64,000 nt of DNA from Candidatus Omnitrophota bacterium (GTDB lineage Bacteria > Omnitrophota > Gorgyraeia > B26-G9). The position numbers and the translations under genes were made by a program. The DNA lies in contig JAHITY010000099.1 of NCBI GenBank assembly GCA_018817165.1, positions 391-64,390 of the forward strand, read 5' to 3'. The notes below the pieces were generated by a model. That model was not told the DNA's origin and made no database searches. It was given only the letters and a program-made list of their open reading frames with translations. Shown one piece after another: positions 5,400 to 49,834 of this stretch (within the stretch, counting starts at the first letter, position 1; each line of letters begins with the position of its first letter).

Positions 5400-5481
5400 C
5401 AGCATGTATGGTAAAGGACAAAAAATACTTAGAAGGCAAGAGTCCGCATAGGGACAAAAAATTTGGAATTTTGCGAAGACT

Positions 5482-5622: not shown

Positions 5623-5806
5623 AGACCATAGCAAGCAGAAGCTATTCGGTGGGATCATTATTCAGGTAAATGGTGAATGGCGTATCAATCAGCAAGAGTC
5701 TTACGATTGGGAAAAAACTTTGCGTAATGACTGGAGCGATTGGGAGTCCTTAAAGTTATAAAACGAAGAAGGTTTCGAGGAGTCGTATTTTAAGGAGGCA
5801 ATATAA

Positions 5807-6877: not shown

Positions 6878-7277
6878 TACTGCTTAAAACCTTTTGAATA
6901 ATCCTTCCTTGTCCTTCACTTGATAATTTTACAAGTGACCGCAATTTCCGCTCAGTGATATATCGTTTTGGCATGGGATCGCCCATTTTCTCGATTGTTT
7001 CTTTAACTTCTGGGGCAAGTTTTAACAAAGCGATGAAGTGGTTAACAGTTACTCGGGAAACGCCGATTTGTCGGGCAAGGTCAGACTCATTTCGGGCTTG
7101 ACCGGATTCAATCATGAGTTTGTATTGTTTAGCTAAGTATATGGGATTGCGATAATTATGTTGGGGTTTAATTTTTAAAGTAGTTTTTGTCTCAAGAATA
7201 ATCGTAAAGGAAAAAGTTCTACGCTCCAGCCACTTCGGGGAGCCAAATATTACACTGAGCGAACTCTTGGTTAACAC
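6843..7277 (-). CDS. Small ParB/KorB-like HTH protein (N-terminal CTPase/nuclease domain absent); start codon uncertain (track uses GTG)
   Basis: DLARQIGVSRVTVNHFIALLKLAPEVKETI matches the ParB HTH consensus (LAe.lGkSRs.VanlLRLLkLpeevq); paralogous to the minus-strand ORFs at 10130-10447 and 13047-13502. Confidence 0.5.
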   Translation of the reverse strand: MLTKSSLSVIFGSPKWLERRTFSFTIILETKTTLKIKPQHNYRNPIYLAKQYKLMIESGQARNESDLARQIGVSRVTVNHFIALLKLAPEVKETIEKMGDPMPKRYITERKLRSLVKLSSEGQGRIIQKVLSSIKYDSQPIQQT

Positions 7278-7408
7278 CGGGTTCGCTCTTTGTGTTTCTA
7301 TACAAAAAATTTCCTACCCTACAAATATTTCCATTGACATATTGCAAAAGTGTGTTAATTTATACATGTAAGATAAATATCTGAAAATACTCTCAGGAGG
7401 TATCTACG

Positions 7409-8200
7409 ATGAATAAAGATACAATAAGCCGTTTAGGGCCTATTGAGGCACAAATAATAGCGCGATTGACGTATGAAGCAAAAACTATTGTTTCAGCAGA
7501 AGAATTAGATACTCTCTTTAAACTCTCCGCTGTAGACCGCGCCAAGGTTGTTTCGCGGCTCAAGAAGAAAAATAGATTAGTTCCTATTAAGAGAGGACTT
7601 TATATTTTTTCCCCCCTTGAAACAGGTCCTTCAGGAAGGGGTATTGATGAGATGTTGATCCCGCCTTTATATTTACCCAAGAATAATTACTATATCGGGT
7701 ATTCGACAATGTTTAATTATTATGGATTTAGTGAACAGATATTCCAAACACTGTATGTTTTGAACACATCATTCAATAAAAAGAAGATTATTTGTGGTAT
7801 TTCATTTAAGTTTTTGAAGATTCCAGAAAATAGAATGTATGGCATAAAAAAAATAGAAGTAAAGGGGCGCGACATTATGGTCAGCGACAAGGAGAGAACG
7901 CTTATTGATTTATTGTACTTTAATAAACCAGTTGGGGGCATCTCTGTTGCGGCAGAGATTTTTATGGGAATTGTTCAGAAAAAACAATGTGATTTAAAGA
8001 AACTAATCAGCTATGCGAGCAAATTTCCGAATGTAACTATTAGAAAGAGGATAGGAGTTTTATTGGAAACTACGGGCATAAGTGAATTGGATTTAAATCC
8101 TTTGAACAAGTCTATTAAAAATACGGCAATTAGTTCTTTGGGGGAAACACGAAAAGGAAAAATAAATAAGAAATGGAGAGTTATTATTAATGCTTCATAA
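7409..8200 (+). CDS. AbiEi-like antitoxin / transcriptional regulator (type IV TA), copy 1
   Basis: 263 aa, N-terminal wHTH-like region; overlaps the downstream DUF1814 nucleotidyltransferase gene by 11 nt; paralog at 10816-11613. Confidence 0.6.
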   Translation: MNKDTISRLGPIEAQIIARLTYEAKTIVSAEELDTLFKLSAVDRAKVVSRLKKKNRLVPIKRGLYIFSPLETGPSGRGIDEMLIPPLYLPKNNYYIGYSTMFNYYGFSEQIFQTLYVLNTSFNKKKIICGISFKFLKIPENRMYGIKKIEVKGRDIMVSDKERTLIDLLYFNKPVGGISVAAEIFMGIVQKKQCDLKKLISYASKFPNVTIRKRIGVLLETTGISELDLNPLNKSIKNTAISSLGETRKGKINKKWRVIINAS

Positions 8201-9068
8201 AGATAAAGAGAAATTTTCTGACATGATTTACCGGGTTGTAAAACAGACGGGTTTCCCCGCGCAGCTTCTTGAAAAGGATTATTATCTGACGTTGATTCTT
8301 TCCAGGATCAATGATTTGTCCGCAGACCTTATTTTTAAGGGCGGAACGTGTCTGAATAAGGTTTATTATGTCTATTATCGATTAAGCGAAGATTTGGACT
8401 TTAGCATGAAACTGCCCGAATATACAACAACCCGCGGTAATCGGCGTAAATGTATTCAGCAGGTAAAGGATAATATTGAGAAATTCGTTGAACAATTCGG
8501 ATTGAAGGTCGACGATAAGGAAAACCCTGGACGTAATGAATCAAAGCAGTATGTTTATAATTTGTTTTATCAGTCCGCGCTGCGGCCACAGGAGATGAGA
8601 ATTAAATTTGAAATTGGCCTCAGGTTTAATCCGATTCTTGAAACTGAAATAAGGGAAGTTAAACACAAATTTTTGCATCCTTTTACTAAAGAACCATTAT
8701 TTGACGGCGGTAAAGTCAATTGTCTATCGTTAGAAGAGATTGTGAGTGAAAAGCTCCGCGCCGCAGCTCTTAGGTTGACTATTGCTCCTAGAGATTTCTA
8801 TGACCTCGATTTTATTATCCGGCAAGGTTTTAACTTAACCGATAAAAAGGTTCTAAATCTATTGGTTAAAAAGATAGAAGAAGACAACGGCGATCCCGAT
8901 CTGGCAAAGTATAAGATAAACCTCGGGCGTTCAGATAAAGAAATCAAAGACATGAAATCACGGATTGAAAATGAGCTGTTTGATGTATTGACAGTCAGAG
9001 AACGGGAAAACTTTGACTTGGATACGGCGTTGGAGAGGATAAATAGCGTTATGGGGGAAGTTGCATAA
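8190..9068 (+). CDS. AbiEii/AbiGii-family nucleotidyltransferase toxin (DUF1814), copy 1
   Basis: LIFKGGTCLNKVYY...YRLSEDLDFSM is the hallmark GGTaL...R(F/L)SEDiD motif of DUF1814 nucleotidyltransferases. Confidence 0.8.
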   Translation: MLHKDKEKFSDMIYRVVKQTGFPAQLLEKDYYLTLILSRINDLSADLIFKGGTCLNKVYYVYYRLSEDLDFSMKLPEYTTTRGNRRKCIQQVKDNIEKFVEQFGLKVDDKENPGRNESKQYVYNLFYQSALRPQEMRIKFEIGLRFNPILETEIREVKHKFLHPFTKEPLFDGGKVNCLSLEEIVSEKLRAAALRLTIAPRDFYDLDFIIRQGFNLTDKKVLNLLVKKIEEDNGDPDLAKYKINLGRSDKEIKDMKSRIENELFDVLTVRERENFDLDTALERINSVMGEVA

Positions 9069-9392
9069 ATTTAAAAAATTAATGGTGGCAGTATGACAGG
9101 ATGTCTAGAAAAAAACTAAAATGTCCCTAATGATGTAAGAAATATATTTTGGCAAGTATATTAGAGATTAAAATATGTGTGATTTGAATAAGTTAGACAA
9201 GATCATTCCCGCAATAAAAAGGGGGAAATGTGTATTTTGGATTGGTTCTGGATTATCTTGTATGATAACAAATTTAAAAACATGGCTAATGAAATATGTA
9301 ATATTTATGAAAAAAACAACGTTCACTTTTTAAGGGCTTTATGGGAAGAGTGGAATAATAAAAAAGAAAAGGAAATTAGTTAAATAATAGTT

Positions 9393-10133
9393 ATGCTCCC
9401 AATTTACGACTTAAATAAAATCAAATTTGCAATCGATGAAGAGACATTTCAACGCGCGGCTGGATTATATGAAAGTGGGAAAGTGACTGAAGTTGAAGAG
9501 CTTGGTGGAAGTTATACCGCTGTTGTTCTTGGAACAAAGCCATATCGTGTTTCGGTATCTGCTCACAATTTTAAGCATGGACATTGTACTTGTTATCTTG
9601 GTGGGAGGGATAGGATTTGTAAGCACATGGTTGCTCTTGCTCTATATGCGGCGGTGGATGGTCAGCCACTGAAAAATGAAGATAAACAACAGACATCAAA
9701 GATTACATGTAGTGACAATAGGGATATATTAAATAAAGCTAATTTAGCTGCGGTTAAGAAATCGATCACTGATTCAATGCGTTACATTAAACCATACAGA
9801 GGTCCTTCGAATAAATGGTTCGCGAATCAGGATTCACTTCAGGAAGGATGCAATAGATTAAGGGAGATTCTTTATGATTTGCCGGTTAATCGCCAATCGG
9901 CTGATCTTTTGGTTAAATTGCTTTTGCGGTTGGAGAAGAAGCTAAGCGCAGGTGGGGTGGATGATTCTAATGGTATTGTGGGGCAATTAGTTGCTGAAAT
10001 AGTGGCTTTGCTTGAAAAGTTTGCCCAAATTGTTCCGATTTGTATCAGTTCGTTTAAACCGCTCTGTGGAAAAGAATATTGTTTCGGTTGGGAAGATTCT
10101 CTTGTTCGTATTTATGATGAAACAATTTCCTAA
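9393..10133 (+). CDS. SWIM zinc-finger domain protein
   Basis: YRVSVSAHNFKHGHCTCYLGGRDRICKHMVALALYAA matches the SWIM signature C-x-C-x(n)-C-K-H-x2-A. Confidence 0.7.
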   Translation: MLPIYDLNKIKFAIDEETFQRAAGLYESGKVTEVEELGGSYTAVVLGTKPYRVSVSAHNFKHGHCTCYLGGRDRICKHMVALALYAAVDGQPLKNEDKQQTSKITCSDNRDILNKANLAAVKKSITDSMRYIKPYRGPSNKWFANQDSLQEGCNRLREILYDLPVNRQSADLLVKLLLRLEKKLSAGGVDDSNGIVGQLVAEIVALLEKFAQIVPICISSFKPLCGKEYCFGWEDSLVRIYDETIS

Positions 10134-10447
10134 AAACTATTGGTTCCAGTAGTATTTCTCAAGAACCGCTCCGTAATCATCTTTTCCTTCCCATATTCTA
10201 AAATATACTTCTGCTGATCCTCCGGTAGTTTTAGGAGGTTTAATATCTGGCATACCCGTACCCTTGAAATCCCTAGTTTTTGGGCTAGTTGGTTTTGGTT
10301 TAGCCATTCTTCCTTCATAATTCGTGTAAACTCTAGTGCCTTTTCAATCGGATTTTCATATGCTTGTACGTACTGATAATGACGCATTTCTTTCTGCGAA
10401 ACAATATGACTTTTTGGTATAAAATCCGGCTTTTTACCACGAAACAA
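10130..10447 (-). CDS. Small ParB/KorB-like HTH protein, copy 2; likely true start is the internal ATG at 10387
   Basis: LAQKLGISRVRVCQILNLLKLPEDQQKYILEYG is a ParB-type HTH; about 93% nucleotide identity to 13090-13500. Confidence 0.5.
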   Translation of the reverse strand: MFRGKKPDFIPKSHIVSQKEMRHYQYVQAYENPIEKALEFTRIMKEEWLNQNQLAQKLGISRVRVCQILNLLKLPEDQQKYILEYGKEKMITERFLRNTTGTNSF

Positions 10448-10815
10448 AGTCTTCGTTTTATTCTGCCATTTGTAAAAGTATGGGATTTCTTCACTTACTA
10501 CTTTTGAATTTGTTCGCTGTGAGTCTCGTTCGGGGAGCCAAATTATAAACCTTTGTAACGCAATAAGTTACAAGGGTTTTATTTTGCCAGTTTGGACACG
10601 TAGCGAACAAAGTATTGATGCCACTGAAGTTGACATCAGAATAGGAGATGGTAGCATAAGTTTCTTCGACGGTAGTTTGAGATATTTAGTTTGTATTTCA
10701 TCAGAGATGTGAATTTTTTAAGCATTTTTAATAATATGGTTGACATCGGGCAATAATATGGTAGTATATTTGATGTATGAAAATTATATATAGGTAACTG
10801 GAGGAGTTACTTGCT

Positions 10816-11613
10816 ATGAAGAAAAAAACAATAAGTGCCTTAACCCAAAAAGAGGCTGAAATTGTTGCCCGTTTATCATATGAGGAAAAGGATATTGTAA
10901 CGGCGCAAGAACTGGATTCTTTTTTGCCTGGCGATTTTCCTTATCGAAAACAGCTGGTTTACAACCTGAAAAAAAAGGGGATTTTAACCCCCATTAAGAG
11001 GGGAGTATATATCTTTGTACCTTTAGAATCTGTGCCGACCGGACGCAGGGTAAGCGAATTCTTAATTCCTCCCATTTTCTTTCCTAAAGATAACTATTAT
11101 ATCGGTTATTCGACCATGTTTAATTATTATGGGTTTACTGATCAGCAGTTTCAAATTATTTATGTGCTTAATACCACTCGTTGTATGAAAAAGACGATAG
11201 CGGGGGCATCATTTAAATTCGTAAAAATACCGTATAATAGGTTTTATGGTTTAGAGAAAATAAGCATAAAAAACAAGGAGATAATTATAAGTTCAAAAGA
11301 GAGGACATTGATTGATTTAATTTATTTCAACAAACCTGTTGGCGGCATCGAAACAGCGGGTGAAATTCTCAGGCGGTTTGTAACGGAAAAGAAATGCGAT
11401 ATTAAAAAGTTGATTGAATATTCTGTTCAATTTCCCGGGGTTAAGACAAAAAAGGTGATAGGTCTTAATCTTGAAAAGGCTGGTGTTTCAGATAACTTAT
11501 TAAAACCGCTGGAAAAAAGTGTGAAGAATACTTCACTCATCTCATTAGCGTATTCTCGTAAAGGGACTCTTAATAAAAAATGGAAGATTATTATTAATGA
11601 TACACAGAGATAA
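10816..11613 (+). CDS. AbiEi-like antitoxin / transcriptional regulator, copy 2
   Basis: 265 aa, co-linear homolog of 7409-8200 (e.g. YIGYSTMFNYYGF shared); overlaps the downstream toxin gene. Confidence 0.6.
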   Translation: MKKKTISALTQKEAEIVARLSYEEKDIVTAQELDSFLPGDFPYRKQLVYNLKKKGILTPIKRGVYIFVPLESVPTGRRVSEFLIPPIFFPKDNYYIGYSTMFNYYGFTDQQFQIIYVLNTTRCMKKTIAGASFKFVKIPYNRFYGLEKISIKNKEIIISSKERTLIDLIYFNKPVGGIETAGEILRRFVTEKKCDIKKLIEYSVQFPGVKTKKVIGLNLEKAGVSDNLLKPLEKSVKNTSLISLAYSRKGTLNKKWKIIINDTQR

Positions 11614-12472
11614 AGACAAATTTTCTAAATTAGTTGATCGTATTGCTTCTTTAACCGGATTTTATGCCCCATTGATGGAGAAGGACTATTATCTGACGCT
11701 TTTTCTTTCTAAAATAAATGAGCTTTCGGATAATCTTATTTTTAAGGGCGGGACCTGCCTTAATAAGATTTACTATTCTTATTATCGGTTAAGTGAAGAT
11801 TTGGACTTTAGCATGCGCCTTCCTGATTATACGACTACTCGCGATAATAGGCGCAAATGCATCCAGCCGGTAAAAGACAATATAGAAAATTTTGCTAAGC
11901 AGTTTGATTTAAAGCTTGAAGGCGCGGAAAACGCGGGGAGAAACGTATCAAAGCAATATGTTTATTATCTCGCGTATGATTCTGTCCTCCTGCCATCACA
12001 ACAAACAATAACGTTCGAAGTGGGATTAAGGTATAATCCAATTTTAAATCCAGAGTTAAAAGATGTTCAGCACAAATTTCTTAATCCTTTTTCTGATAAA
12101 CCCTTATTTGATGGCGGAAAAGTGAAGAGCATGTCTTTGAATGAAATCGTGAGTGAAAAACTCAGGGCTGCGGCCTTGAGGCAAATAATCGCCCCGCGAG
12201 ATTTCTATGACCTCGATTTTATTATCCGGCAAGGTTTTAACTTAGCGGATAAAGAGGTTATAAAGCTATTCGTTAAAAAGATTGAGGAGGACAATGGCGA
12301 TCTTGATCTGGCAAAATACAAAATCAACCTCGGTCGCTCAGACAAAGAAATCAAAGACATGAAATCACGTATTGAGAATGAGTTGTTTGATGTGTTAACA
12401 GTTAGCGAGCGGGAAAACTTTGACTTGGATACAGCGTTGAAGAGGATTAATGAAGTAATGGGCGGTATTTAA
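11597..12472 (+). CDS. AbiEii/AbiGii-family nucleotidyltransferase toxin (DUF1814), copy 2
   Basis: LIFKGGTCLNKIYY...YRLSEDLDFSM motif; the C-terminal ~110 aa are nearly identical to copy 1. Confidence 0.8.
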   Translation: MIHRDKDKFSKLVDRIASLTGFYAPLMEKDYYLTLFLSKINELSDNLIFKGGTCLNKIYYSYYRLSEDLDFSMRLPDYTTTRDNRRKCIQPVKDNIENFAKQFDLKLEGAENAGRNVSKQYVYYLAYDSVLLPSQQTITFEVGLRYNPILNPELKDVQHKFLNPFSDKPLFDGGKVKSMSLNEIVSEKLRAAALRQIIAPRDFYDLDFIIRQGFNLADKEVIKLFVKKIEEDNGDLDLAKYKINLGRSDKEIKDMKSRIENELFDVLTVSERENFDLDTALKRINEVMGGI

Positions 12473-12490
12473 TTAGGAGCATTATGTAGT

Positions 12491-13084
12491 ATGTCTTTTA
12501 TTCGAATAACCCAAAAACTCCAAAAAGAGATGGGAATAAAAAATGCTGATTTAGTATCGCAGGGAAAGTCCACAGAGGCTTTTCATGAATGGTACGCCCA
12601 TGTTTTTATTCTTGCTCGGAAAAAGCAAGTGATTTTTGTTGAGACGCAGACGTTGTTTTCCTTTTGTATTGAGAATGTTAACCTAAAAGATATTCGAGAG
12701 CGGTTGTCGGGACTTTTTGAGAAAGGTTTCGGGAAGGCTCTTTTTGTTGAGGGAGTAAGCGCTCTAATTATGTCAAAGGTGATGGAGATTTGTCGAGGGG
12801 AATTAAAATTTGCAAAAACTGAGAGCCGAATGACGATAGGGGCGATGAATGAGTTTGTTAAGCAACATAAATTTTGTTTTTCGTATAAAGATAGGGCAAT
12901 TGAGACGCAAGACCAGATGAATCGGTATATGCCGATGCGGGGATTTCCGGATGGATCCAAGGGTTATAAATTCCCCATAGAGGTTTTTGCTAAAGTAGTT
13001 AAAGATCAGTTTGATTTAGATTTCACTCCGCGCAAACAGGACTTTTTTAAGAAAATTTATTCTGATAGGGCGTTAGAGATTTAG
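12491..13084 (+). CDS. Hypothetical protein; third gene of the AbiE cassette 2, in the position taken by the SWIM gene in cassette 1
   Basis: 197-aa ORF with good coding features; no motif recognised. Confidence 0.35.
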   Translation: MSFIRITQKLQKEMGIKNADLVSQGKSTEAFHEWYAHVFILARKKQVIFVETQTLFSFCIENVNLKDIRERLSGLFEKGFGKALFVEGVSALIMSKVMEICRGELKFAKTESRMTIGAMNEFVKQHKFCFSYKDRAIETQDQMNRYMPMRGFPDGSKGYKFPIEVFAKVVKDQFDLDFTPRKQDFFKKIYSDRALEI

Positions 13085-13502
13085 ATGGAAACTCCTCTTT
13101 TCGCAATTGCCTTTCCGTAATCATCTTTTCCTTCCCATATTCTAAAATATACTTCTGCTGATCCTCCGGTAGCTTTAAGAGATTTAATAGCTGACATACC
13201 CGCACACTTGAAATCCCTAGTTTTTGGGCTAGTTGGTTTTGGTTTAGCCCTTCTTCCTTCATAATTCGTGTAAACTCTAGTGCCTTTTCAATAGGATTTT
13301 CATATGCTTGTACGTACTGATAATGACGCATTTCTTTCTGCGAAACAATATTACTTTTTGGTATAAAATCTGGCTTTTCACCACGAAATAAAGTCTTCGT
13401 TTTATTCTGCCATCTGTAATGGTATGGCAATACATCAGTTACAACGCGTGAATTTGTTCGCTGTGAGTCTCGTTCGGGGAGCCAAAAAATCAGAGAGTCC
13501 AA
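13047..13502 (-). CDS. Small ParB/KorB-like HTH protein, copy 3 (track start is TTG; likely true start is an internal ATG)
   Basis: LAQKLGISSVRVCQLLNLLKLPEDQQKYILEYG; near-identical to the copy at 10130-10447. Confidence 0.5.
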   Translation of the reverse strand: MDSLIFWLPERDSQRTNSRVVTDVLPYHYRWQNKTKTLFRGEKPDFIPKSNIVSQKEMRHYQYVQAYENPIEKALEFTRIMKEEGLNQNQLAQKLGISSVRVCQLLNLLKLPEDQQKYILEYGKEKMITERQLRKEEFPSKSLTPYQNKFS

Positions 13503-13818
13503 AAGGGCTCTCTTTTTTTGTCCGCGAGAACTCGAACCTCAAAAAAGGGTATTAGGGGAAAAGACTGTTTTCCCCTATCCCGAATGGGGAATATTTCTCT
13601 GGGTTAGCATCGGGACCCCGAAGAGTTTCTTTGGGGAGTTACTTCATTCGGGGTCGGCGTACTGGAACTTCTCGCGCAAGGAAGGGGTATCCAAGGGGAA
13701 CTGAAAGAGTGCACCTTTAAGGAGTGAGCGGACCTGTTTCTCAAGGGAGCGCTTGTCCCGCCGTATTTTGGCGGGGACACGACAGGTTCGGCGAAGCGAA
13801 AGTCCTCGCGGGGGGAGC
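13474..13818 (+). repeat. Structured ~345-bp repeat, copy 1: GGGGAGCCAAAAAA box, terminator hairpin (CAGAGAGTCC-AAAA-GGGCTCTCT-T7), then a GC-rich element with a closing helix (CCGCGAG...CTCGCGG), a variable middle and a conserved 3' block with hairpin GTCCCGCC-GTATTTT-GGCGGGGAC
   Basis: Direct repeat of 18131-18444; the 3' ~125 nt are nearly identical and the closing helix covaries between copies. Confidence 0.7.
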
Positions 13819-14000
13819 TAAAAAACCTAACAAGTTGTAACTAAATAAGTTGCAGCGGGTTATTTTTTTGCAAAAATCATTGATTCGTGGTATACTTTAA
13901 AATCTTTTTTAGTATGTGATTTTAAATCCTAACTTATTAAAATTGAATAAGTTGAAAGATAAGTAGCTTTAAGGCGGAATGAGGATCATTTAGGGTAAAA

Positions 14001-17000
14001 ATGAGAAAGAAAAAAAGTATCTATAAAATAATAGTCAATATTATTATATTAGCACTTGTGCAGGTATTAGCATTTTCTAATTCTGCATGGGCTCTTGAAG
14101 CTTCTTTGCAAAAAAACAGAGATACTTTATCTCCGCAAATCCAAACAAGTCTTCCATTGATTCAAAATGCCTATAGTTTTTTAAAAGCAAATAAAGAACA
14201 GGGGAATACTCTTTTCTTGCGCACAGAGGCAAGTATTGAAAAAACGCCAAGTGAGTTAAGAAAGGACTTACTTGAGCTTATGGAATTTCTTGGTAAAAAA
14301 GATTTTAAAATTCTTATAGATATAGCTTTTAAAGATAAAGTGCTAACTCAAGATCAATATGAAGTTTTGCTTTATTGCTTAAAGCAAGGGGCTGTATCTC
14401 TTGAAAAAATAGATAGGACTTTTTCACAGCAAAGAAGGGTTGATATTACTACTGTGACCAGGTGGCTTGTAGGCACAAGTGAACAGGGAAGAAAGGAAAT
14501 CGGGGCATATCAGATAATTTATGAGGACGCTTCGCCATCTCTTAGGGAGAAAATAGATCAAAAGCTGGCGGTTTATATTAAAGAAAATATATTTGATTTC
14601 TTCTTGAATCATATGGATGCTGAAATTAAAAATGTCATGGAAAAAGCTATTGAAAACTGGCAGGGTGAAGAGGTTGAAAAAGAAATTATTAGGATTAAGC
14701 TAAGCAATCCTGGTGTTGCATGGAAAGATATATATGAGCATGAAAATGTGAACTTAAAAAAAGGCAAATTTTATAAGACCCTTAAGCGTATAAAAAAGAA
14801 TTTCAATAAAGCTATTGATAATGAGGGAACTGTAATTATTGAAAAAATAATCATAGAAGAAAGCCCTCGAGCATTGAAATATCTTGCAGGTGATCTTATG
14901 GAATTAAAGACGGAATTGCTTGATGTAATCGAAACATCAGAAAGATTAAAAGTAAAAAAAATGGATGAAGAGGAAAAAAGCTTTGTGCTTAGAATGAGTT
15001 TGTTTGAAGGTGAAAAACATAGAGCAATCGATAAGATAAATAAATTTTTTCTGGGCAGATCACAGATGTTCTTGAATGGAAGAACTCTGGAGGAGAATTT
15101 TTATGAAGGGGCAAAGAAAATAAAACAGTTTTTATTGCTGCCTGGAGGGAAATATTTATGCTTCTTTGAGCCTAAAGATGAAATGATCAATAATTCCTTT
15201 GAAAAAAATAATCTTGTTTTTGCTGTGCTAAATTCAAGCTCTAAGGCAAAAAGAATTAATTTAGATAAATATATTATTAGTGGAAAAAGCTTGAGTTTAG
15301 GAGGGAATTTTGTCTGGAACCAGTACAAGATTAATTGCTCAAATTTTCAATCTGCAAATATTGAGTTTCGGGTTGAAAATGATATCCCACGCTTTATTAA
15401 ATTATTGCAAAATAAAGAGGGGCAACAGATCAGAGATAATAAAGGAGAGCCATTAGTAATCGAAGTCTTTGATATGTTTGGACAGAAGGTGTCAGTGCGG
15501 CGTCAGCTTGCGGACAAATATTTTTTAAAACTAAAGCTGAATGATAAGAAAATTCGTTGTTCATATAATGAAGCTGAAAAAAATGTGCATGAGGCGATTG
15601 TTGATCTAAAGAGAATCAGTATTGATCTTGATTCTTGGCAGTTTAAGAAAAAACTGCGTGAAGTAAAAAAAGCTTTGTGGGTTATAAGAGGAGATCTTAA
15701 GGGTAAGGAGCAAGAAACAGCGAGGTTTATCTGTGATATGGCAGGCAGAGATGATCTTTTTGAAATACTACAGAATATTTCGATGAAGGGAATGTTTAGA
15801 TCATATTTAACTTTTCAATCAGCTTTTGATGCTTATATGGCTCGGGATAAAGATAAAAGACATTTTGACAGCCTTAACTGCAGTAAGGCGAAAGGCGGAG
15901 ATATTACTTTGCTTGATGCGGTAAGAAATTATGGGATTTTAAAGCGTAAAATAGAAGCTGAATATAAAGATGTGCATGAAGCACATAAAGAATTTATGTT
16001 TATGGATAAGAAAGATATTTCGTATGTGCAGCTTTCCATGAGAAAAGACGATGGAGGCAATCCAATGTTATTAAAAGCATTTTATAAATTTCGCCAGGAA
16101 CTAAAAGATATATATGGTTTTACTTTGCCTGATAATACACATAAAAGAAAAAGTAAAAAGGAAGTTCAAGCCTTTCTTGATAATATTCCGGAGCGAGAGC
16201 AGACTCCTAAAAAATTGAAAGAAAATAATCTTTGGTGGGTTTATAATGGAGCAAAATATTATAAAATTGTATTGCCAAAAGAAAGAGATTTTATAGATAA
16301 TACAGGATATGATAGCTATAAAGAAAGAATTAATAATAGAAATAAATATCAAGAAGTGGACATGTTTGAATTGTGGCATAGCATGGAAACGGATCAGGAG
16401 GCAAGGAATCAGTTAATTGAATATTTTATGCCGATGATAATAGATACTGTTGAGGATTTTAATGGTCGAAAAGGAAAATATATTACAGAACATTCCCAGT
16501 TTTATCTGGATGGCGATATTAGTAGGGCGAGTGTGGCAATGATTGAGGCAATTGATGACTGGCATCCTGAGATGGATATGATGTTAGATGGTTTTGTTAA
16601 GGATCGGATTATCTCAGCGTTTAAGAAAAGTATAAATGAATTTTATAAAGATAAAAGAATAATGCAGTCATCGAATACGCCTAAAGGGAATAAAGATGGG
16701 AATTATGCAGGTAAAAGTGGTCCTTTTGGCAATGGGAGGATTAATACTCTTGATGATAAATTTGAAGCAAATACTGTTGCTGCTGATGATGCATTCGATA
16801 GGGTTCAGCGTATGGAAAGGGCAGTTGCCGGCATAGGTAAAGGGGATTACAGCTTCTTAGTTGGTAGTGAATTTGAAATCAATGAATCTATGCTTATACC
16901 CAAAATTAGAAAACAGCAATTTGCTGAAGAACTGCGCAGTTATCTGTTAAAGCGAGGTGTCCTTGAAAATATTTCAGGTAAATTTGCTATTTGGGTTATG

Positions 17001-17990
17001 GGCAGTATGGGAAATATCGGGCTTGCTCGAAAAGGAGACAGCGATGTTAATCTCATAGTGCTTATGCAGGCAAGCAATGGCCAATGTAAAGAAGCTGTTT
17101 GGAGTCTTGAGGCGCTGATCGGTACAGGAGAAATATTTGAGGGTAATGATGAAAATTTTATTTTAGAAATCGGAAAAAACGGGAGCAGACAGGAGCTGGA
17201 TTTTTATGCTCCGCAATTTGTTTCATTGCTTGAGAAATATGAGGTAGGAATAAATGGTAAAGGAGCTGCTTCTATTGAGGTGGTTTCCACAAATGCAGCG
17301 GGCTATGGAGATAATCGGGCATTGAAGCGGGCGCGTTTTCATGTGGTTGATGATATTACCGGGATGGGTACCAATGGGATATTGGTATTGGAATCTGATG
17401 AAGGGATAGCCCAAGAACTTAAACAACAAGTCAGAGACAGGTTTGTTGATGATTTTGAGTATCATATTGATTTTGCGAATGAGTACTTAATTTATTTTTT
17501 TGCAGAGCAAGTGGAAAAACTAAAATCAACGATTGATAAGAATAAAAAGGTTGAATTACCTTTAGAGCCAAACGTTGAAATTCAAGAAGAGGCTTCTGAG
17601 GAATCTTCCATATTTCAGAAAGCAGATTCGCCTAGAAATAGAGGCTTTTTTCAGGATAAGGTCAGGCTAGAGGTGTTTAATGGGTTTGTATCGATAAGAT
17701 TAATTGATCTTATCGAAGGCGGCGTGATGGCTTTTAAAGATGAGTGGCGGCATATGCTAACTGTATTTGAAGGAAAAAATATTTTTGTGGATGACTATCT
17801 TAAAACAGATAATGTAGACCCCGGTAAAGAAGAAGCGATTGAAGCGTTAAGTGATGAATTATTGATTTATCTTCAAAAAGAGATTCAGCAAATGTCTGGT
17901 CATCATGAAAAAGGGGGGCAGGGTTGGACATGCAGCAGCTTTGACTTTGAAATGTTAAGAGATAATGCAGAAGTAAAATCAGCAATATAA
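14001..17990 (+). CDS. Giant (1329-aa) signal-anchored, Lys/Glu-rich protein with an embedded minimal nucleotidyltransferase (Pol-beta superfamily) motif
   Basis: N-terminus MRKKKSIYKIIVNIIILALVQVLAFSNSAWA (signal peptide or anchor); about aa 993-1015 WVMGSMGNIGLARKGDSDVNLIVL fits hG[GS]-x10-D-x-D-h (GlnE/GlnD/CD-NTase-like); AT-rich and Lys-rich composition; strong TTGCAA-N17-TATACT promoter at 13868-13896. Confidence 0.55.
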   Translation: MRKKKSIYKIIVNIIILALVQVLAFSNSAWALEASLQKNRDTLSPQIQTSLPLIQNAYSFLKANKEQGNTLFLRTEASIEKTPSELRKDLLELMEFLGKKDFKILIDIAFKDKVLTQDQYEVLLYCLKQGAVSLEKIDRTFSQQRRVDITTVTRWLVGTSEQGRKEIGAYQIIYEDASPSLREKIDQKLAVYIKENIFDFFLNHMDAEIKNVMEKAIENWQGEEVEKEIIRIKLSNPGVAWKDIYEHENVNLKKGKFYKTLKRIKKNFNKAIDNEGTVIIEKIIIEESPRALKYLAGDLMELKTELLDVIETSERLKVKKMDEEEKSFVLRMSLFEGEKHRAIDKINKFFLGRSQMFLNGRTLEENFYEGAKKIKQFLLLPGGKYLCFFEPKDEMINNSFEKNNLVFAVLNSSSKAKRINLDKYIISGKSLSLGGNFVWNQYKINCSNFQSANIEFRVENDIPRFIKLLQNKEGQQIRDNKGEPLVIEVFDMFGQKVSVRRQLADKYFLKLKLNDKKIRCSYNEAEKNVHEAIVDLKRISIDLDSWQFKKKLREVKKALWVIRGDLKGKEQETARFICDMAGRDDLFEILQNISMKGMFRSYLTFQSAFDAYMARDKDKRHFDSLNCSKAKGGDITLLDAVRNYGILKRKIEAEYKDVHEAHKEFMFMDKKDISYVQLSMRKDDGGNPMLLKAFYKFRQELKDIYGFTLPDNTHKRKSKKEVQAFLDNIPEREQTPKKLKENNLWWVYNGAKYYKIVLPKERDFIDNTGYDSYKERINNRNKYQEVDMFELWHSMETDQEARNQLIEYFMPMIIDTVEDFNGRKGKYITEHSQFYLDGDISRASVAMIEAIDDWHPEMDMMLDGFVKDRIISAFKKSINEFYKDKRIMQSSNTPKGNKDGNYAGKSGPFGNGRINTLDDKFEANTVAADDAFDRVQRMERAVAGIGKGDYSFLVGSEFEINESMLIPKIRKQQFAEELRSYLLKRGVLENISGKFAIWVMGSMGNIGLARKGDSDVNLIVLMQASNGQCKEAVWSLEALIGTGEIFEGNDENFILEIGKNGSRQELDFYAPQFVSLLEKYEVGINGKGAASIEVVSTNAAGYGDNRALKRARFHVVDDITGMGTNGILVLESDEGIAQELKQQVRDRFVDDFEYHIDFANEYLIYFFAEQVEKLKSTIDKNKKVELPLEPNVEIQEEASEESSIFQKADSPRNRGFFQDKVRLEVFNGFVSIRLIDLIEGGVMAFKDEWRHMLTVFEGKNIFVDDYLKTDNVDPGKEEAIEALSDELLIYLQKEIQQMSGHHEKGGQGWTCSSFDFEMLRDNAEVKSAI

Positions 17991-18130
17991 AAATATATTA
18001 AATAAATATAAAATATTCAGCAATCAATGTAATGTGGTTTAGATGCTTGTTTAACAATTAGAACACGGCACATTAAGTTGTAAGTTTTTAAGCCTTTCTG
18101 AATCTTAAAAGTTACGAAATTTGTCAAATA

Positions 18131-18444
18131 CGGGGGAGCCAAAAAAATTAGAGAGTCCTTTTGGGCTCTCTGATTTTTCAGCGAGGACGAAGAACCTTAA
18201 AAAAGGGTTTTAGGGGAAAAGATGCCCGGGCTTACAAATCATCTTGAGAGCCTTCTGATGTTTCATGTTCAGGCATTCTCATAGGATTGTTCCCTTCCTA
18301 TCTCGAATGGGGAATATTAAGGGGGAACTGAAAGAGTGCCCCTTTAAGGAGTGAGCGGACCTGTTTCTCAAGGGAGCGCTTGTCCCGCCGTATTTTGGCG
18401 GGGACACGACAGGTTCGGCGAAGCGAAAGTCCTCGCGGGGGAGC
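18131..18444 (+). repeat. Structured repeat, copy 2 (direct repeat of 13474-13818), preceded by a remnant of the ParB-like gene 5' end
   Basis: CGGGGGAGCCAAAAAAATTAGAGAGTCCTTTTGGGCTCTCTGATTTTT, then closing helix CGAGGAC...GTCCTCG, then the identical 3' block with hairpin 18382-18405. Confidence 0.7.
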
Positions 18445-18506
18445 TTGTTTTTTAATCCATTATTATAGAAGCTTATAGTAAGGGGACTTTTTTTTATCTT
18501 GACAAA

Positions 18507-18531
18507 TAGTAATGATTACTATATAGTAATC
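18507..18531 (+). promoter_or_regulatory. Fur-family (Zur-like) operator TAGTAAT-G-ATTACTA with an overlapping half-site, inside the TTGACA-N17-TATAGT promoter of the fur-family gene
   Basis: Perfect 7-1-7 inverted repeat at 18507-18521 plus TAGTAATCAT at 18523-18532; -35 TTGACA at 18499-18504. Confidence 0.65.
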
Positions 18532-18533
18532 AT

Positions 18534-18971
18534 ATGGAAAAGGAAGCGCAGGACCTTAAGAAAATGTTCTATGATAAGTGTGCCGAGAAGGGATTAAAAA
18601 TAACCCCTCAACGTTTGCTTATTTTTGATGAGCTCTCAAAAGCTAAAGATCATCCTACGGCCGATGCCATCTATAGACGTGTACGCAAGAGTCTATCGAA
18701 TATTTCTTTCGATACTGTCTATCGGACTTTATTGTCTTTTACTGAAATAGGTATAGTTAATCTTGTAGAAGGTTCTGGACAGCAAAAACGCTTTGACCCT
18801 AATCGACATCTACATCATCATTTCAGATGTATTAAGTGCGACACTATTTACGATTTTGAGAATGATGCATATAATGATATTGCCGTGCCGAAGGCTGTGC
18901 AGAAACAAGGAGTTATTATCAATAAGAGGGTAGTGTTGGAAGGTATTTGTTCGAAGTGTAAGGGGAAGTAA
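18534..18971 (+). CDS. Fur-family metalloregulator (Fur/Zur/PerR)
   Basis: ITPQRLLIFDEL...HPTADAIYRRV...ISFDTVYRTL DNA-binding domain; HHHFRC..C and C-terminal C..C metal sites. Confidence 0.8.
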   Translation: MEKEAQDLKKMFYDKCAEKGLKITPQRLLIFDELSKAKDHPTADAIYRRVRKSLSNISFDTVYRTLLSFTEIGIVNLVEGSGQQKRFDPNRHLHHHFRCIKCDTIYDFENDAYNDIAVPKAVQKQGVIINKRVVLEGICSKCKGK

Positions 18972-18988
18972 TATTTTTTTACCTATTG

Positions 18989-19007
18989 AATAGTAATTAT
19001 TACTATT
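18989..19007 (+). promoter_or_regulatory. Second Fur-family box, a 19-bp perfect palindrome AATAGTAAT-T-ATTACTATT upstream of the PTPS-like gene
   Basis: Perfect inverted repeat about 110 bp upstream of 19118; same xxGTAATnATTACxx core as the box upstream of the regulator. Confidence 0.6.
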
Positions 19008-19117
19008 TAGTAGTCAAACGCAATTAAAGGAAGGGGTGATTTAGAAAATAAAACATGATTAGCGGAGGGCAGTAAGTAATATAAAAATAAAACACTAACC
19101 AAAAGGAGGGAACTATT

Positions 19118-19612
19118 ATGTTAAACGAAAAGTATACATCAATCGTAAAATTTGATTTTCAGTACGCGCATAGATTTATGAATTGGCCGCGCGAAGCAAA
19201 ACATCTTCATGGGCATTCCGGTCTTGTAACAATTGAACTGGAAGACACCGTAGATCCGGTGACAGGATATGCACACGCTTGTAAAGATGGATTCAAAAAA
19301 GCCTGGGAAGTCTGTGACCATTTCCACCACGCAACAATATTGCAAGAAGGCGACCCTCTGCTTGAGGCGATGCTTGCTGTATATAAAAAGGCAGGCATTA
19401 CTAATGACCCGGAGCATTGTGTTCCTCTTAAAAAGATAGACCACCCACTTGCTTGGTCATATCCGGAATACAGAATAGTTGTATCTAAAAAAGTTACTAC
19501 TTGTGAAAATTGGTGTGAACTTTTATACGAGCTTCTTAAAGACAAGATGCCAATCAAAAAAATTACTTTCCGCTCATCTTCTATGAACTGCGCATCGAAA
19601 GTATTTAAGTAA
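19118..19612 (+). CDS. 6-pyruvoyl-tetrahydropterin synthase (PTPS/QueD)-family protein, candidate Zur-regulated paralog (QueD2-like)
   Basis: FQYAHRF...AKHLHGHSGLV...VDPVTGYAHACKDGFKK...CDHFHHATIL matches the PTPS fold signature (AAHRL...HGH...TGmv.DF..lK...lDH). Confidence 0.55.
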   Translation: MLNEKYTSIVKFDFQYAHRFMNWPREAKHLHGHSGLVTIELEDTVDPVTGYAHACKDGFKKAWEVCDHFHHATILQEGDPLLEAMLAVYKKAGITNDPEHCVPLKKIDHPLAWSYPEYRIVVSKKVTTCENWCELLYELLKDKMPIKKITFRSSSMNCASKVFK

Positions 19613-19633
19613 AAAAAGGTTATATTTGTACTC

Positions 19634-19656
19634 ATCCACCGGCTTAGCCGGTGGAT
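19634..19656 (+). terminator. Rho-independent terminator CCACCGGCT-TA-GCCGGTGG followed by a T-rich run
   Basis: Perfect 9-bp stem immediately after the stop of 19118-19612. Confidence 0.6.
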
Positions 19657-19973
19657 GTTCTTTTCTATTACAAGTTGCGGAATAGAGAGAAGCCAGTAAA
19701 ATCAGAGAGTCCAAAAGGGCTCTCTTTTTTTGTCCGCGAGGGCAAAAACCTCAAAGGGAGTTTATAATCTGATATTATATAGTAGTTCATGTGAAAGTAT
19801 AAGATAAAGCAATGCTTCTATTAAGTAATAAAACATCAATATTGATAGCTTAGTGCAATTATAAGTATTTAAAGCATTATATTTGATATATTGTTGAATA
19901 TTGCAATAATGTATCAAATATGATATATTATATATTATAAGAGTCGTTAAAACTTCAAAAGTGAGGTGTTAAT

Positions 19974-20318
19974 ATGATTAAAAATGAAATGTCAGATGAG
20001 GCAATTTTAAATGAGATTGGATTGCGAATTGCTAGATGTAGGTTAAATAAGAATGTGACTCAATCAGCGCTAGCTATTGAATCAGGGGTTTCAACGCCAA
20101 CCATACAGCGTGCAGAAGGAGGTGCGTCAATTCAATTGGTGAAGTTGATACGAATTTTGCGCGCATTAAACTTGATTGAGAATATAGAATTGCTTGTCCC
20201 TGAACTTGCTTTCAGTCCTCTTCAACAACTTAAGATGAAAGGGAAAATAAGACGCCGCGCTTCATTGCTACATGAAAATGAAAAAGCAGCTGACTGGACA
20301 TGGGGGGATGAGGGATGA
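19974..20318 (+). CDS. hipB: HipB-like XRE-family HTH antitoxin
   Basis: HTH (VTQSALAIESGVSTPTIQRAEGG); its stop overlaps the hipA start (ATGA). Confidence 0.6.
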   Translation: MIKNEMSDEAILNEIGLRIARCRLNKNVTQSALAIESGVSTPTIQRAEGGASIQLVKLIRILRALNLIENIELLVPELAFSPLQQLKMKGKIRRRASLLHENEKAADWTWGDEG

Positions 20319-21995: not shown

Positions 21996-23216
21996 ATGAT
22001 GAAAGATTGTTTTAATATTTTAATTTTTAATGGTGGTAGCTCATCATTGACTTATAAGATTTTTCAAGTAGATAATTCTAAGAATATTAAGGTTGTTTCT
22101 TATGGAAAAGCGCATAGGGTAGGGGTTAAAGGCGCCAAATCCTCTTTTATCGAACATTGTCTTAATGCTAAGATATCTAAAAATATAACGCCTATTCCAA
22201 GTCATCAAGCTGCGGCTAGGTTAATATTAAAACATATCGAGGATAATTGTATAAAAATAGATTCTATCGGGCATAGGTTTGTGCATGGGGGGAGTCATTT
22301 TAAAGAATCAATTTTGTTGGATAGGAATACTTTAAGTAAACTCTTGTTATGCTTGCCTTTAGCGCCTCTGCATAATCCTATTTCTTTGTCGGTTATTCAG
22401 GAATCAAGAAAATTTTTCCCTGATTTGCCGCAATATGTTGTTTTTGATTCTGCCTTTCATTCCACTATTCCAGCTCATGCTTATACTTATGCTTTGCCTA
22501 AAAGAATAATAAAAAAATTCGGATTTAGAAAATATGGATTCCATGGATTATCTTATTCTTATGTAGCTAGGGAAGTGCCTGTATTTTTAAAAGATAAATC
22601 GAAAAATCTTCGGATCGTTGCTTGTCATCTCGGTACCGGCGGTTCAAGCGTAGCTGCGATTAAAGGCGGCCGATCCGTAGATAATTCTATGGGGTATTCT
22701 CCGCTTTGCGGACTGGTTATGAGTACTCGTTGCGGGGATATTGATCCGATGCTTATGATTTATCTCATGAAAATCTATGACTATCGTCCAGATGAATTAA
22801 TGGATATTTTAAATACGAAAAGCGGTCTTTTGGGAATTTCCGGTTTTTCAAGTGATATTACCGATATAATACAGCGCATTGAAGGAGAAAAAGAAATAGA
22901 CAGGGCGAGCCTTGCTTTGAATATGTATATTCACCGTTTAAGAAAATATATTGGAAGTTATATTGTTGCTCTCGGGGGTGTGGATGCATTAGTATTTACG
23001 GATGATATTGGGGTTCATAACTGGCAGGTAAGAGAAAAGGTTTGCCAGGGCATGGAGTGGGCCGGTATAGTTTTGGACCGTAAGGTAAATCGTAAAATTA
23101 GCGGTAATGAAGTTTCATTGGTAAATGACGCTTGCTCTAAAGTAAAAATAGTGCTTCTTCCTGCTGAAGAAGAATTGATTATTTGTCTTGAGGGAACTAA
23201 ACTGTTGAGGTTGTAA
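21996..23216 (+). CDS. ackA: Acetate/propionate kinase
   Basis: ILIFNGGSSSLTYKIF (ATP motif), FDSAFHSTIP, RKYGFHGLSYSYV, VACHLGTGGSSVAAIKGGRSVDNSMGYSPLCGLVMSTRCGDIDP. Confidence 0.85.
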   Translation: MMKDCFNILIFNGGSSSLTYKIFQVDNSKNIKVVSYGKAHRVGVKGAKSSFIEHCLNAKISKNITPIPSHQAAARLILKHIEDNCIKIDSIGHRFVHGGSHFKESILLDRNTLSKLLLCLPLAPLHNPISLSVIQESRKFFPDLPQYVVFDSAFHSTIPAHAYTYALPKRIIKKFGFRKYGFHGLSYSYVAREVPVFLKDKSKNLRIVACHLGTGGSSVAAIKGGRSVDNSMGYSPLCGLVMSTRCGDIDPMLMIYLMKIYDYRPDELMDILNTKSGLLGISGFSSDITDIIQRIEGEKEIDRASLALNMYIHRLRKYIGSYIVALGGVDALVFTDDIGVHNWQVREKVCQGMEWAGIVLDRKVNRKISGNEVSLVNDACSKVKIVLLPAEEELIICLEGTKLLRL

Positions 23217-24278
23217 ATGATATTAATATTTGATCCATCCTTTTCCGCTTTACGCTGGTGTAATATAGAGGGTGAAAATTGTTCAGAATTTAAATGTGAG
23301 TTTAGCCCGGGATGGTTTGATCGGGTTATGAAAAGTATTGGTAATGTTAAGGAAATCGAAGCCATAGGTTATGTTTTATACCATGGTGGTGAAATTATTA
23401 GAAATCCCGTTGAAATTATTTCTTTGGAATTAATCAAAAAGCTGGAACAATGTGTTAAGTTTGATCCGGAGCGTAATGATTTAACTTTGAAAATTATTAT
23501 GCAATGTATCCGGCAATTTAAAGAAATAAAACATATTTTGCTTTGTGATACTGCCTTTTTTGCGGATTTGCCTGAGGAGGTAAGTACTTATGCGGTTCCT
23601 TATGAATTGCGGGAAAAGGGGATTAGGCGATATGGCAGGCAAGGTTTAAGTCATCAGTGGGCATGGGTGCAAACTAAAGCACTCGCGGAAAAAAATATTT
23701 GTAATGCCATAAGCGTTTATTTGGGCAATCATACCAATATGGTTGCGATAAAAAAAAGTAAAGCCCAAGAGACAAGCGTGGGTTTTACAAGTGTGGAAGG
23801 GATAATATCCACAGTAAGCTGTGGGGATATAGATCCTACTGTTATTTTTCAGATGCATTCTACCGGTATGTCCTTTAGGACAATAAATAGTATATTATCT
23901 CAAGAAAGTGGTTTTAAGGCTTTGTTAGGTAAAAAAAGCAGCTTATCCGATATTTTAAGCAAAAAGGGGAGTTCTAAGGAAATTGCTTTGCGGGAGATTT
24001 ATTGTTACAATATTTTAAAATATTTGGGTGGTTTTATTTCCTCGATTGGCGGGGTGGATACGCTAATATTTATTGGTGAAGATATAAACCAGGCTGTACC
24101 TTTTATTCGTGAAATTTGCTGCAGACTAAGATTTCTTGGGTTAAAACTTAAACGAAGCGTGACTAAAAGTGGAACATTATTTAATTTAACAACAAAGGAT
24201 TCTCCGATCAAAGTTTTTTGTTTAAAATATAATAAATGGAAAGTTTTAGCTTATTGGGCTAAGGAGGGATTGAGATGA
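23217..24278 (+). CDS. Degenerate acetate-kinase-like paralog (probable pseudo-enzyme)
   Basis: Co-linear with AckA (CDTAFFADLPE, VSCGDIDP) but lacks the N-terminal GGSSS phosphate loop and has RQG in place of the catalytic FHG histidine. Confidence 0.6.
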   Translation: MILIFDPSFSALRWCNIEGENCSEFKCEFSPGWFDRVMKSIGNVKEIEAIGYVLYHGGEIIRNPVEIISLELIKKLEQCVKFDPERNDLTLKIIMQCIRQFKEIKHILLCDTAFFADLPEEVSTYAVPYELREKGIRRYGRQGLSHQWAWVQTKALAEKNICNAISVYLGNHTNMVAIKKSKAQETSVGFTSVEGIISTVSCGDIDPTVIFQMHSTGMSFRTINSILSQESGFKALLGKKSSLSDILSKKGSSKEIALREIYCYNILKYLGGFISSIGGVDTLIFIGEDINQAVPFIREICCRLRFLGLKLKRSVTKSGTLFNLTTKDSPIKVFCLKYNKWKVLAYWAKEGLR

Positions 24279-30930: not shown

Positions 30931-31098
30931 AGAAAATGAAATATAATAGTTGATATTTTTGATCTCAAACTTGAAACTAATTTAACCGCGGAGTTAAAAA
31001 ATACGGGAGTCCTTTTGGGCTCCCTGTTTTTTTAGAGTCTTTTGCTTTATCCTCCAGAAGCTCCCAAAGAAAAATCTTGACAGAATTATATTTTTGTT

Positions 31099-49788: not shown

Positions 49789-49834
49789 TTCTCGGCATAG
49801 TTTTCATTCAATGGTCATGGATTAAACTCATTCA

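Follow-up and report, generated by a model that had tools for sequence, protein, structure and literature searches.

Repeats flanking a giant gene in an Omnitrophota contig belong to a conserved, putatively folded element with a tRNA-Asn-like 3' end

The window analysed here is a 64,000-nucleotide (nt) stretch of a Candidatus Omnitrophota metagenome-assembled genome contig (proteins MBU1044567-75), in which two repeats in direct orientation, at 13474-13818 and 18131-18444, flank an open reading frame (ORF) of 1329 amino acids (aa) at 14001-17990. An initial annotation had described this arrangement and proposed that the repeats are a structured non-coding RNA or an att-like recombination site rather than a simple terminator. 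Both options survive and nothing simpler does, although the arguments drawn from a closing helix, a ParB-like gene and the giant gene fail. We find that both repeats are paralogous copies of a conserved, undescribed element of ~165-300 nt, here called E, that occurs in one Omnitrophota subgroup. That E is no simple terminator is borne out by its presence in at least seven other contigs, its covarying hairpins, its position at cargo boundaries and its 17-nt copy of the 3' end of transfer RNA-Asn (tRNA-Asn). Left of every stand-alone E lie a hairpin and a ~35-nt motif, R (AAAAAGTTGCGAAACTCGT-N7-GGGGGAGYCA), that resembles a degenerate or shortened form of the E/tRNA-Asn 3' end. The features of the two copies and of the cargo between them are given below; L-numbers (L058, L065 and so on) label the related contigs and loci that were compared with the window.

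13451-13486, plus strand: R motif left of copy 1, resembling a degenerate tRNA-Asn/E 3' end (…GAGTCTCGTTCGGGGAGCCA; nhmmer R profile).
13485-13519, plus strand: A-run, hairpin and T-run before copy 1, terminator-like and bidirectional (terminator scan; repeat families D2, I1).
13522-13817, plus strand: E copy 1, 296 nt (nhmmer E = 3.5e-43; alignment A2, RNAalifold and pair counts; fold z = -3.6).
Helix strands of copy 1: P1 5' 13522-13531, P1 3' 13802-13811; P2 5' 13534-13539, P2 3' 13784-13789.
Hairpins of copy 1: P3 13554-13576; P5 ~13693-13718; lineage-specific hairpin 13755-13778; mini-hairpin 13790-13799.
13800-13817, plus strand: tRNA-Asn-like core of copy 1, AAGTCCTCGCGGGGGGAG, equal to tRNA-Asn nt 57-73 plus one extra G.
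13834-13896, plus strand: decayed hairpin/terminator, then the giant-gene promoter TTGCAA-17-TATACT (scan; homologous flanks at 49990-50035 and L058 9313-9350).
14001-17990, plus strand: 1329-aa ORF, cargo between copies 1 and 2, no significant Pfam domain.
18107-18143, plus strand: R motif left of copy 2 (nhmmer E = 5e-05; regular-expression match).
18144-18178, plus strand: hairpin with A and T runs before copy 2, its loop inverted relative to copy 1.
18179-18443, plus strand: E copy 2, 265 nt (nhmmer E = 1.1e-37; fold z = -4.06).
Parts of copy 2: P1 5' 18181-18188; P2 5' 18192-18197; P2 3' 18411-18416; core 18427-18443.

Both copies begin, as first described, with the box GGGGAGCC, an A-run and the hairpin AGAGAGTCC-N4-GGGCTCTCT, which in copy 1 is called by a terminator scan (stem 13492-13513), and the promoters reported at 13868 and 18499 were both recovered by scanning. 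The first ~90 nt of the two copies are 82% identical, and their middles differ because each holds its own insertion in a different hairpin: ~95 nt after CCTATCCCGAATGGGGAATATT in copy 1, and ~75 nt within the GGGGAAAA/TTTTCCCC hairpin in copy 2. The near-identical 3' block, originally put at ~125 nt, measures 127 nt (97% identity ungapped, 98.4% by blastn), and copy-to-copy similarity stops 1-2 nt past the tRNA-Asn-like core. The perfect hairpin GTCCCGCC-GTATTTT-GGCGGGGAC, which the initial annotation stressed, does occur only twice in the window, once in each repeat (0 expected by chance), but it is a lineage-specific variable arm that is not conserved across the E alignment. The body of E is GC-rich within an AT-rich genome. 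An independent short-read assembly of the giant gene (L001, Logan contig SRR6514274_112892) breaks within the 127-nt block on both sides, as expected because the assembler collapses the repeat; E would account for such assembly breaks.

The repeats do not exist as a pair only: the window contains three further partial or decayed E copies, and seven full copies lie in other Omnitrophota contigs. A diverged copy was found downstream of QueD in L058 by way of contigs carrying near-identical QueD proteins; it revealed a conserved two-block pattern that led to seven more copies from a metagenome collection, and the E and R families were searched with nhmmer profiles. These searches return nine full copies (E-values 1e-33 to 1e-47) in at least seven contigs, plus one 3' fragment. 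The copies split into two subgroups, with the window copies the longest and a minimal form of 162-166 nt in L066 and L070, and the body has the same orientation in 9/9 copies, which rules out an invertible promoter switch. Scanning a genome-contig collection with the 18-mer GGCGAAGCGAAAGTCCTC gave chance matches only, in GC-rich genomes; two viral-contig scans gave zero matches, and blastn against phage and plasmid collections gave none. The Rfam scan that had been proposed leaves E unmatched: the window yields no match at gathering score, 13300-20100 at E <= 10 yields only chance-level matches (E > 0.5), and the homologues in seven loci go unmatched though adjacent group I introns score 81-94 bits. 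ARAGORN finds no tRNA and no transfer-messenger RNA (tmRNA) in E, and neither program supports E as tmRNA, RNase P RNA, signal recognition particle RNA or 6S RNA.

Every E ends in ...GAGTCCTCGCGGGGGAG (AAGTCC... in the window and L069), and its final 17 nt reproduce nt 57-73 of tRNA-Asn(GUU) exactly, comprising half of the T loop, the 3' strands of the T stem and the acceptor, and G73; the tRNA-Asn genes in L058, L065 and L066 end in the same way, and the identity extends over 17-18 nt. Past G73 the sequences diverge at once (CCA, CTT, TAA, TCA, CCG), with CCA encoded in 4/10 copies. The 3' part of E reads ...CGACAGGTTC, a variable mini-hairpin, then GAGTCCTCGCGGGGGAG, and its 5' strand, GCGAGGAC-NN-GAACC, complements GGTTC-NN-GTCCTCGC, the T-loop/T-stem/acceptor part of the same tRNA. 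The E 5' end complements the tRNA sequence exactly in L067, and the two ends of E are complementary at 18/18 positions in L058. An intact tRNA-Asn heads the array in L058, L065, L066 and L070. It is followed after 11 nt by E, without a terminator, in L070; it adjoins E with a terminator hairpin between them in L066; and it lies 1.5-3 kb ahead of E in L065 and L058, separated from it by two small genes in the former and by a HEPN/nucleotidyltransferase pair and Fur-QueD in the latter. The junction between tRNA and E forms an imperfect palindrome of ~56 bp centred on AAATTT, with arms 74-87% complementary. At RecR-anchored loci of other Omnitrophota, recR is followed by an intron-containing tRNA-Asn, yet E is absent; E is therefore accessory and not a core partner of the tRNA.

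The tRNA-Asn(GUU) gene is itself interrupted between anticodon positions 35 and 36 by a group I intron of ~210-300 nt (RF00028, 81-94 bits), as seen at L058 7417-7745, L065 ~10990-10623 (minus strand) and L066 ~3545-3206 (minus strand), and also in L085-L090 and L097. E as a decayed form of such an intron was rejected, since local alignment scores no better than shuffles in two of three loci and the third (L058) shares one 14-mer. The L066 tRNA-Asn gene is preceded by a perfect TTGACA-16-TATAAT promoter, and the one in L058 by a gene for a thiamine pyrophosphate-dependent enzyme (5345-7384) whose matches to Hint/intein-splicing domains suggest an intein.

Aligning the nine copies (two subgroups, with variable regions aligned approximately) and folding them with RNAalifold predicts two long-range helices, P1 and P2, hairpins P3 and P5, and the mini-hairpin. 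Paired cells amount to 94.9% against 86.8% in column shuffles, both sides have changed at 13 pairs, a count reached by 0/500 shuffles, and sliding the partners drops pairing to 38-56%. Double changes are concentrated in the local hairpins (6/9 pairs in P3, 5/9 in P5 and 1/2 in the mini-hairpin), and the copies' own insertions sit at each hairpin tip. The larger alignment thus supplies covariation in these hairpins but not in the closing helix that the initial annotation had singled out. From these compensatory changes, observed in nine sequences of two subgroups and excluding the long-range helices, the body of E is judged to be under selection to fold.

The closing helix corresponds to P1, and its ends can indeed pair, being the 5' tRNA complement of E and its tRNA-like 3' end. 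The reported shifted compensatory pair, however, is not one: the 3' strand GTCCTCGCGG is identical in both window copies and only the 5' strand differs, and across nine homologues 0/7 pairs have changed on both sides. P1 has no double changes and P2 has one, although both are 93-94% paired, and we attribute this near-absence to the 3' strands being frozen as a tRNA copy. The bases between P1 and P2 are UC/GA (Watson-Crick), UU/GA or GA/GA (tandem G-A), a variation that fits a continuous helix in a single strand. A closing helix is plausible on this evidence, and it is conservation, not covariation, that backs it. Both strands fold better than shuffles (z -3.4 to -4.1), and folding energy alone therefore cannot tell the strand; wobble pairs in P1 (one G-U against two A-C) are equally uninformative on this point.

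These comparisons bear directly on whether the repeats are functionless debris, be it degenerating pseudogene copies of tRNA-Asn with its intron or the product of simple local duplication. The tRNA-derived ends, the 14-mer in common with the L058 intron and the existence of decayed copies could all be read in this way. In homologues from other Omnitrophota contigs, however, compensatory changes have preserved the hairpins. The body shares no homology with the intron, Rfam detects no intron within E, and the core is perfectly conserved whereas true decayed copies drift to AT. Homology, covariation and the intron comparison largely refute this explanation, and we give it scarcely any credence.

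The nature of the folded molecule we infer: E most likely folds as a putative RNA, and possibly as single-stranded DNA, like integron attC or the attP of CTX phage. GC-richness, conserved single-stranded junctions (GGGGAGYGA, GAGCGACAGGUUC), the absence of a terminator between tRNA and E in L070, a hairpin and T-run right after E in most loci, and CGAAG-type loops in the style of the adjacent, bona fide group I intron RNA all favour RNA. The same observations, joined by the covarying hairpins, the CCA that follows G73 in some copies and the tandem G-A, U-C and U-U variation between P1 and P2, which suits an RNA helix, could be pressed further to make E above all a small RNA gene in its own right, tRNA-Asn-like at its 3' end and originally co-transcribed with its tRNA-Asn partner; islands would use its tail secondarily, as they do that of ssrA, and the extra copies would be by-products. 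Against this stand the absence of E from other Omnitrophota with the same recR-tRNA-Asn locus, which means that it is not a core RNA, the failure of scans to find a sigma-70-like promoter before E, the terminator that precedes E in 8/9 copies, the several paralogous and decayed copies in one genome, and a P1 whose 3' strand is frozen while its partner drifts. We regard a primary small RNA gene as possible but doubtful. A retron RNA was also rejected: the genes downstream of E (giant ORF, Fur, Fic, zeta toxin, small membrane proteins) differ in every locus, and none has a reverse transcriptase domain.

If E instead acted as folded single-stranded DNA, its inverted tRNA-like ends would anneal into a duplex copy of the tRNA-Asn T arm, with the branched middle as a variable terminal structure, and E would be a recombination site of the kind represented by attC and CTX-phage attP. 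The inverted-repeat ends, the strong pairing of P1 and P2, a centre that varies in length while its hairpins are conserved, and the presence of one module per cassette end are consistent with such a site, and mini-hairpins of the GCGAAGC type are known to be stable as DNA. E lacks the integron R''/R' consensus, however, and the window Pfam scans show no integron-type integrase; the body conserves sequence motifs and not structure alone, and single-stranded intermediates are without evidence. We consider this account improbable.

The position of E within arrays of cargo points to the role that we favour, that of a cassette-end module. Cargo starts directly after the 3' end of a tRNA or an E and closes with a degenerate copy of that end, the R motif, plus a hairpin. 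R motifs lie at 7211, 10507, 13451, 18107, 21683, 44384 and 49835 in the window, and elsewhere at L058 13840 and 15230, L059 8798, 9283 and 10600, and L071 5002 and 6284; the one beside copy 1 has an identical 27-nt counterpart at 10516-10542. The remaining junctions in the window are as follows.

7211-7247, plus strand: R motif, cassette boundary before an AbiEi/AbiEii module (nhmmer R profile).
10507-10542, plus strand: R motif between the two AbiE modules, with a hairpin next (nhmmer R profile).
18499-19612, plus strand: next cassette, with promoter (TTGACA-N17-TATAGT, 18499), Fur (18534-18971) and QueD (19118-19612).
19660-19760, plus strand: copy 3, a 5'-only copy made up of the opening ~30 nt of E (cut off after the P2 5' strand) behind a degenerate R motif and a hairpin; repeat similarity covers 19698-19760.
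44383-44469, plus strand: R motif and hairpin, the left-hand one of two 87-nt direct repeats (95% identity) that enclose the second giant gene.
About 48945-49260, plus strand: E in a decayed, AT-enriched form, together with an R motif and a hairpin, after the second giant gene (nhmmer 49031-49107, E = 0.0027).
49834-49985, plus strand: right-hand 87-nt repeat (49834-49920), followed by a mini-E (~49915-49985) whose end reads ...GCGGGGGAG.

The 87-nt repeats enclose the second giant ORF, the decayed E and a PNPOx gene. Similar bracketing is seen in L065, where a two-gene cargo lies between E and an R motif and an identical 28-nt R motif also stands left of E, and in L066, where a GIY-YIG gene lies between the E core and the mini-core GCGAGGAACGGCCCTCGCGGGGGAG. 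Fur-QueD lies between junction motifs in the window, L058 and L059, and at least 90% identical Fur-QueD occurs in differing contexts in L056, L058, L059, L071, L076 and L079. Cargo at the same junction varies: tRNA and E are adjacent in L070 and L066, with 1.5-3 kb of cargo between them in L065 and L058. Most of the neighbouring cargo is of toxin-antitoxin or defence type (AbiEi/AbiEii, PIN, restriction-modification, HipBA, Fic, zeta toxin, HEPN/MNT). One junction-type hairpin at 30996-31035 (GGGAGTCC-TTTT-GGGCTCCC, with A and T runs) stands before a TetR-efflux operon without an R motif or E.

An array of this kind could also arise if E were a non-autonomous transposon resembling a miniature inverted-repeat transposable element, with a preference for tRNA-like or terminator-proximal targets. 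Such an element would have the terminal inverted repeats of 13-18 bp, the 9-10-nt direct repeats (GGGGAGCCA) on both flanks, and the several intergenic copies per genome, placed after hairpins, that we observe. The right inverted repeat and flanking repeat, however, reproduce 17-20 nt of tRNA-Asn exactly in every copy, which target duplication would not do, and the flanking repeat is always the same tRNA-derived sequence. Copy number is low (2-5 in 64 kb), covariation in the body is unexpected, and no transposase was found in the window Pfam scans or among the called genes of the fetched loci. Together these points make a transposon very unlikely.

Neither the giant gene nor the ParB-like gene is tied to E. 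The sole homologue of the 1329-aa protein (53% identity; P0024) sits in L083/L084 without E, among other giant genes, and the giant gene is therefore incidental cargo; a functional tie is ruled out by this E-free context and by the lack of relation between the two giant proteins of the window, the second of which (1410 aa, 44655-48887) has a subtilase domain. In L083/L084 (12-11550) three giant genes follow one another (1276, 1318 and 1193 aa), of which the homologue is the middle one and the last has a faint nucleotidyltransferase match; consistent with that match, a GS...DxD nucleotidyltransferase-like motif can be seen by eye near residue 1000 of the window protein. The minus-strand gene at 13047-13502 does encode a ParB helix-turn-helix (HTH) domain, as first noted, but E is not its leader or riboswitch: a paralogous ParB-HTH gene at 10130-10447 has nothing but an R motif upstream, and elsewhere E lies beside different genes. 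The supposed ParB remnant left of copy 2 is a short similarity that amounts to the R motif, present before every copy.

Further observations concern the rest of the window. The stretches 7409-10447 and 10816-13502 are tandem diverged modules, each with AbiEi, AbiEii and a variable ORF (246 aa without assigned function, or DUF6933) followed by a minus-strand ParB-HTH gene, and both close with the same 27-nt R-motif sequence. The left end (1979-6877) is a defence cluster in which a BpuJI-like restriction enzyme lies between two C5 cytosine methyltransferases and is followed by a PIN_12 protein. At 21996-24278, tandem acetate/propionate kinase-like genes (406 and 353 aa) precede a FolE2-type GTP cyclohydrolase.

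Related genomes suggest which enzyme could act at these ends. One population carries a 1.4-kb segment directly 3' of tRNA-Asn in both orientations (L085 5534-7196 versus L088 2629-4286), flanked by 137-bp inverted repeats that start at tRNA G71, and the segment encodes a 478-aa large serine recombinase (Resolvase, Recombinase and Zn ribbon). The tRNA-Asn 3' end is thus a recombination hotspot in this phylum.

We propose, with a probability of about 0.5, that cassettes without a recombinase of their own accrete at tRNA-Asn-like ends and that E is their end module, with a body selected to fold, probably as RNA. Recombination itself and the enzyme are steps that we infer. The region would be a cassette array grown by site-specific insertion at tRNA-Asn-like ends, one after another, through a recombinase acting in trans, for which the large serine recombinase beside tRNA-Asn in related genomes is the candidate type. 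The dyad-symmetric site of that recombinase would be made up of both E ends and the preceding tRNA-like end; E alone, as in L066 and L070, would be a miniature integrative element without a recombinase, and the giant gene mere cargo between two E modules. E RNA would be made by read-through from the tRNA or an upstream gene.

Several observations weigh against this proposal. No recombinase domain occurs among the 41 window ORFs scanned against Pfam, and the lineages with a serine recombinase beside tRNA-Asn lack E, so that recombinase and E are linked by analogy only. Neither tRNA-Asn nor its 5' half lies within the 64-kb window, beyond which the contig runs for ~7 kb, and no excised circle or precise empty/filled pair was observed. 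Many unrelated genes have an R motif shortly past their stop codon, almost invariably on the coding strand, and the motif may thus be a general terminator-associated repeat instead of an insertion scar. A plain att site needs no conserved, covarying body of 130-260 nt, and a serine-recombinase site, being sensitive to spacing, is hard to reconcile with the variable mini-hairpin that splits the T-loop-like part in each E. The negative promoter scans and the preceding terminators, already set against a small RNA gene, count equally against the RNA part of the proposal.

If the proposal holds, it explains how an uncultured phylum builds arrays of defence, toxin-antitoxin and giant surface-type genes from small, recombinase-free cassettes whose docking points are copies of a tRNA tail, with the 17-nt core and the R motif as simple markers of cassette boundaries in Omnitrophota metagenomes. 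E would also be a conserved folded element outside Rfam that joins the structured nucleic acids of DNA mobility, such as attC, CTX attP and bridge/omega RNAs. A bolder version, which we advance only tentatively and think unlikely as it stands, is that E is a self-contained mini integrative element whose sole cargo is a structured RNA of a new class, tailed by tRNA-Asn sequence, or a new folded attachment site that serves a serine recombinase as attC serves integron integrases; either would amount to integron-like cassette capture in Omnitrophota with tRNA-Asn as the landing pad.

Comparison with known systems places E among several partial likenesses. The asn tRNA islands of Enterobacteria (high-pathogenicity island, pks, microcin) likewise use Asn tRNA genes as hotspots with direct repeats of ~17 bp that match the tRNA 3' end, but they are large, encode P4-like tyrosine integrases and have no structured junction element. 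Like tmRNA (ssrA) and other tRNA-like small RNAs, E resembles a structured RNA gene whose tRNA-like 3' end attracts integrating elements; unlike tmRNA, it has no T loop, D-arm analogue or tag reading frame, ARAGORN and Rfam are negative, and its acceptor 3' strand has no conserved partner in most copies. Integron attC sites and attC-only arrays (PMC2727003, PMC4889954) also place one imperfect-palindrome site at each small cassette end, with conserved structure and a variable centre, possibly branched into variable terminal structures, in arrays rich in toxin-antitoxin genes. The ends of E, however, read GAGGAC-NN-GAACC and GGTTC...GTCCTC where attC has R'' and R' (RYYYAAC ... GTTRRRY), IntI or another tyrosine recombinase was not found in the window Pfam scans, E is 2-4 times longer with conserved sequence motifs and a tRNA-derived end, and its cassettes have their own promoters.

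The best-fitting described system is that of the ssrA islands in Dehalococcoides; here tRNA-Asn takes the place of ssrA as anchor. Those islands are tandem and bounded by 20-bp repeats of the ssrA 3' end, each preceded by a conserved motif that the island carries; they feature a CcrB-like serine recombinase and a ParB-domain gene, and the recombinase-less ones among them are thought to move by accretion (PMC3146451). The array described here shares with them, and with the staphylococcal cassette chromosome SCCmec at orfX, tandem islands downstream of a small-RNA or conserved gene, direct repeats of 17-20 nt of the target 3' end as boundaries with a conserved motif just upstream, a ParB-domain gene in the modules and, if the proposal holds, a large serine recombinase by which islands that lack one would be mobilised in trans (PMC3146451). 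Of the hallmarks of tandem islands, boundary repeats equal to the target 3' end and varying cargo are present, and a cognate integrase is absent from the window scans. Unlike those systems, the target here is tRNA-Asn and not ssrA or orfX, the cassettes are very small, at 0.5-5 kb, and those in the window carry no recombinase gene, and a mini-hairpin interrupts the T-loop-like part. The junctions may, moreover, hold a folded module of 165-300 nt that has the repeat in inverted, complementary form at its 5' end, and it is this conserved module with inverted tRNA-like half-site ends, not described for ssrA islands, that is new here.

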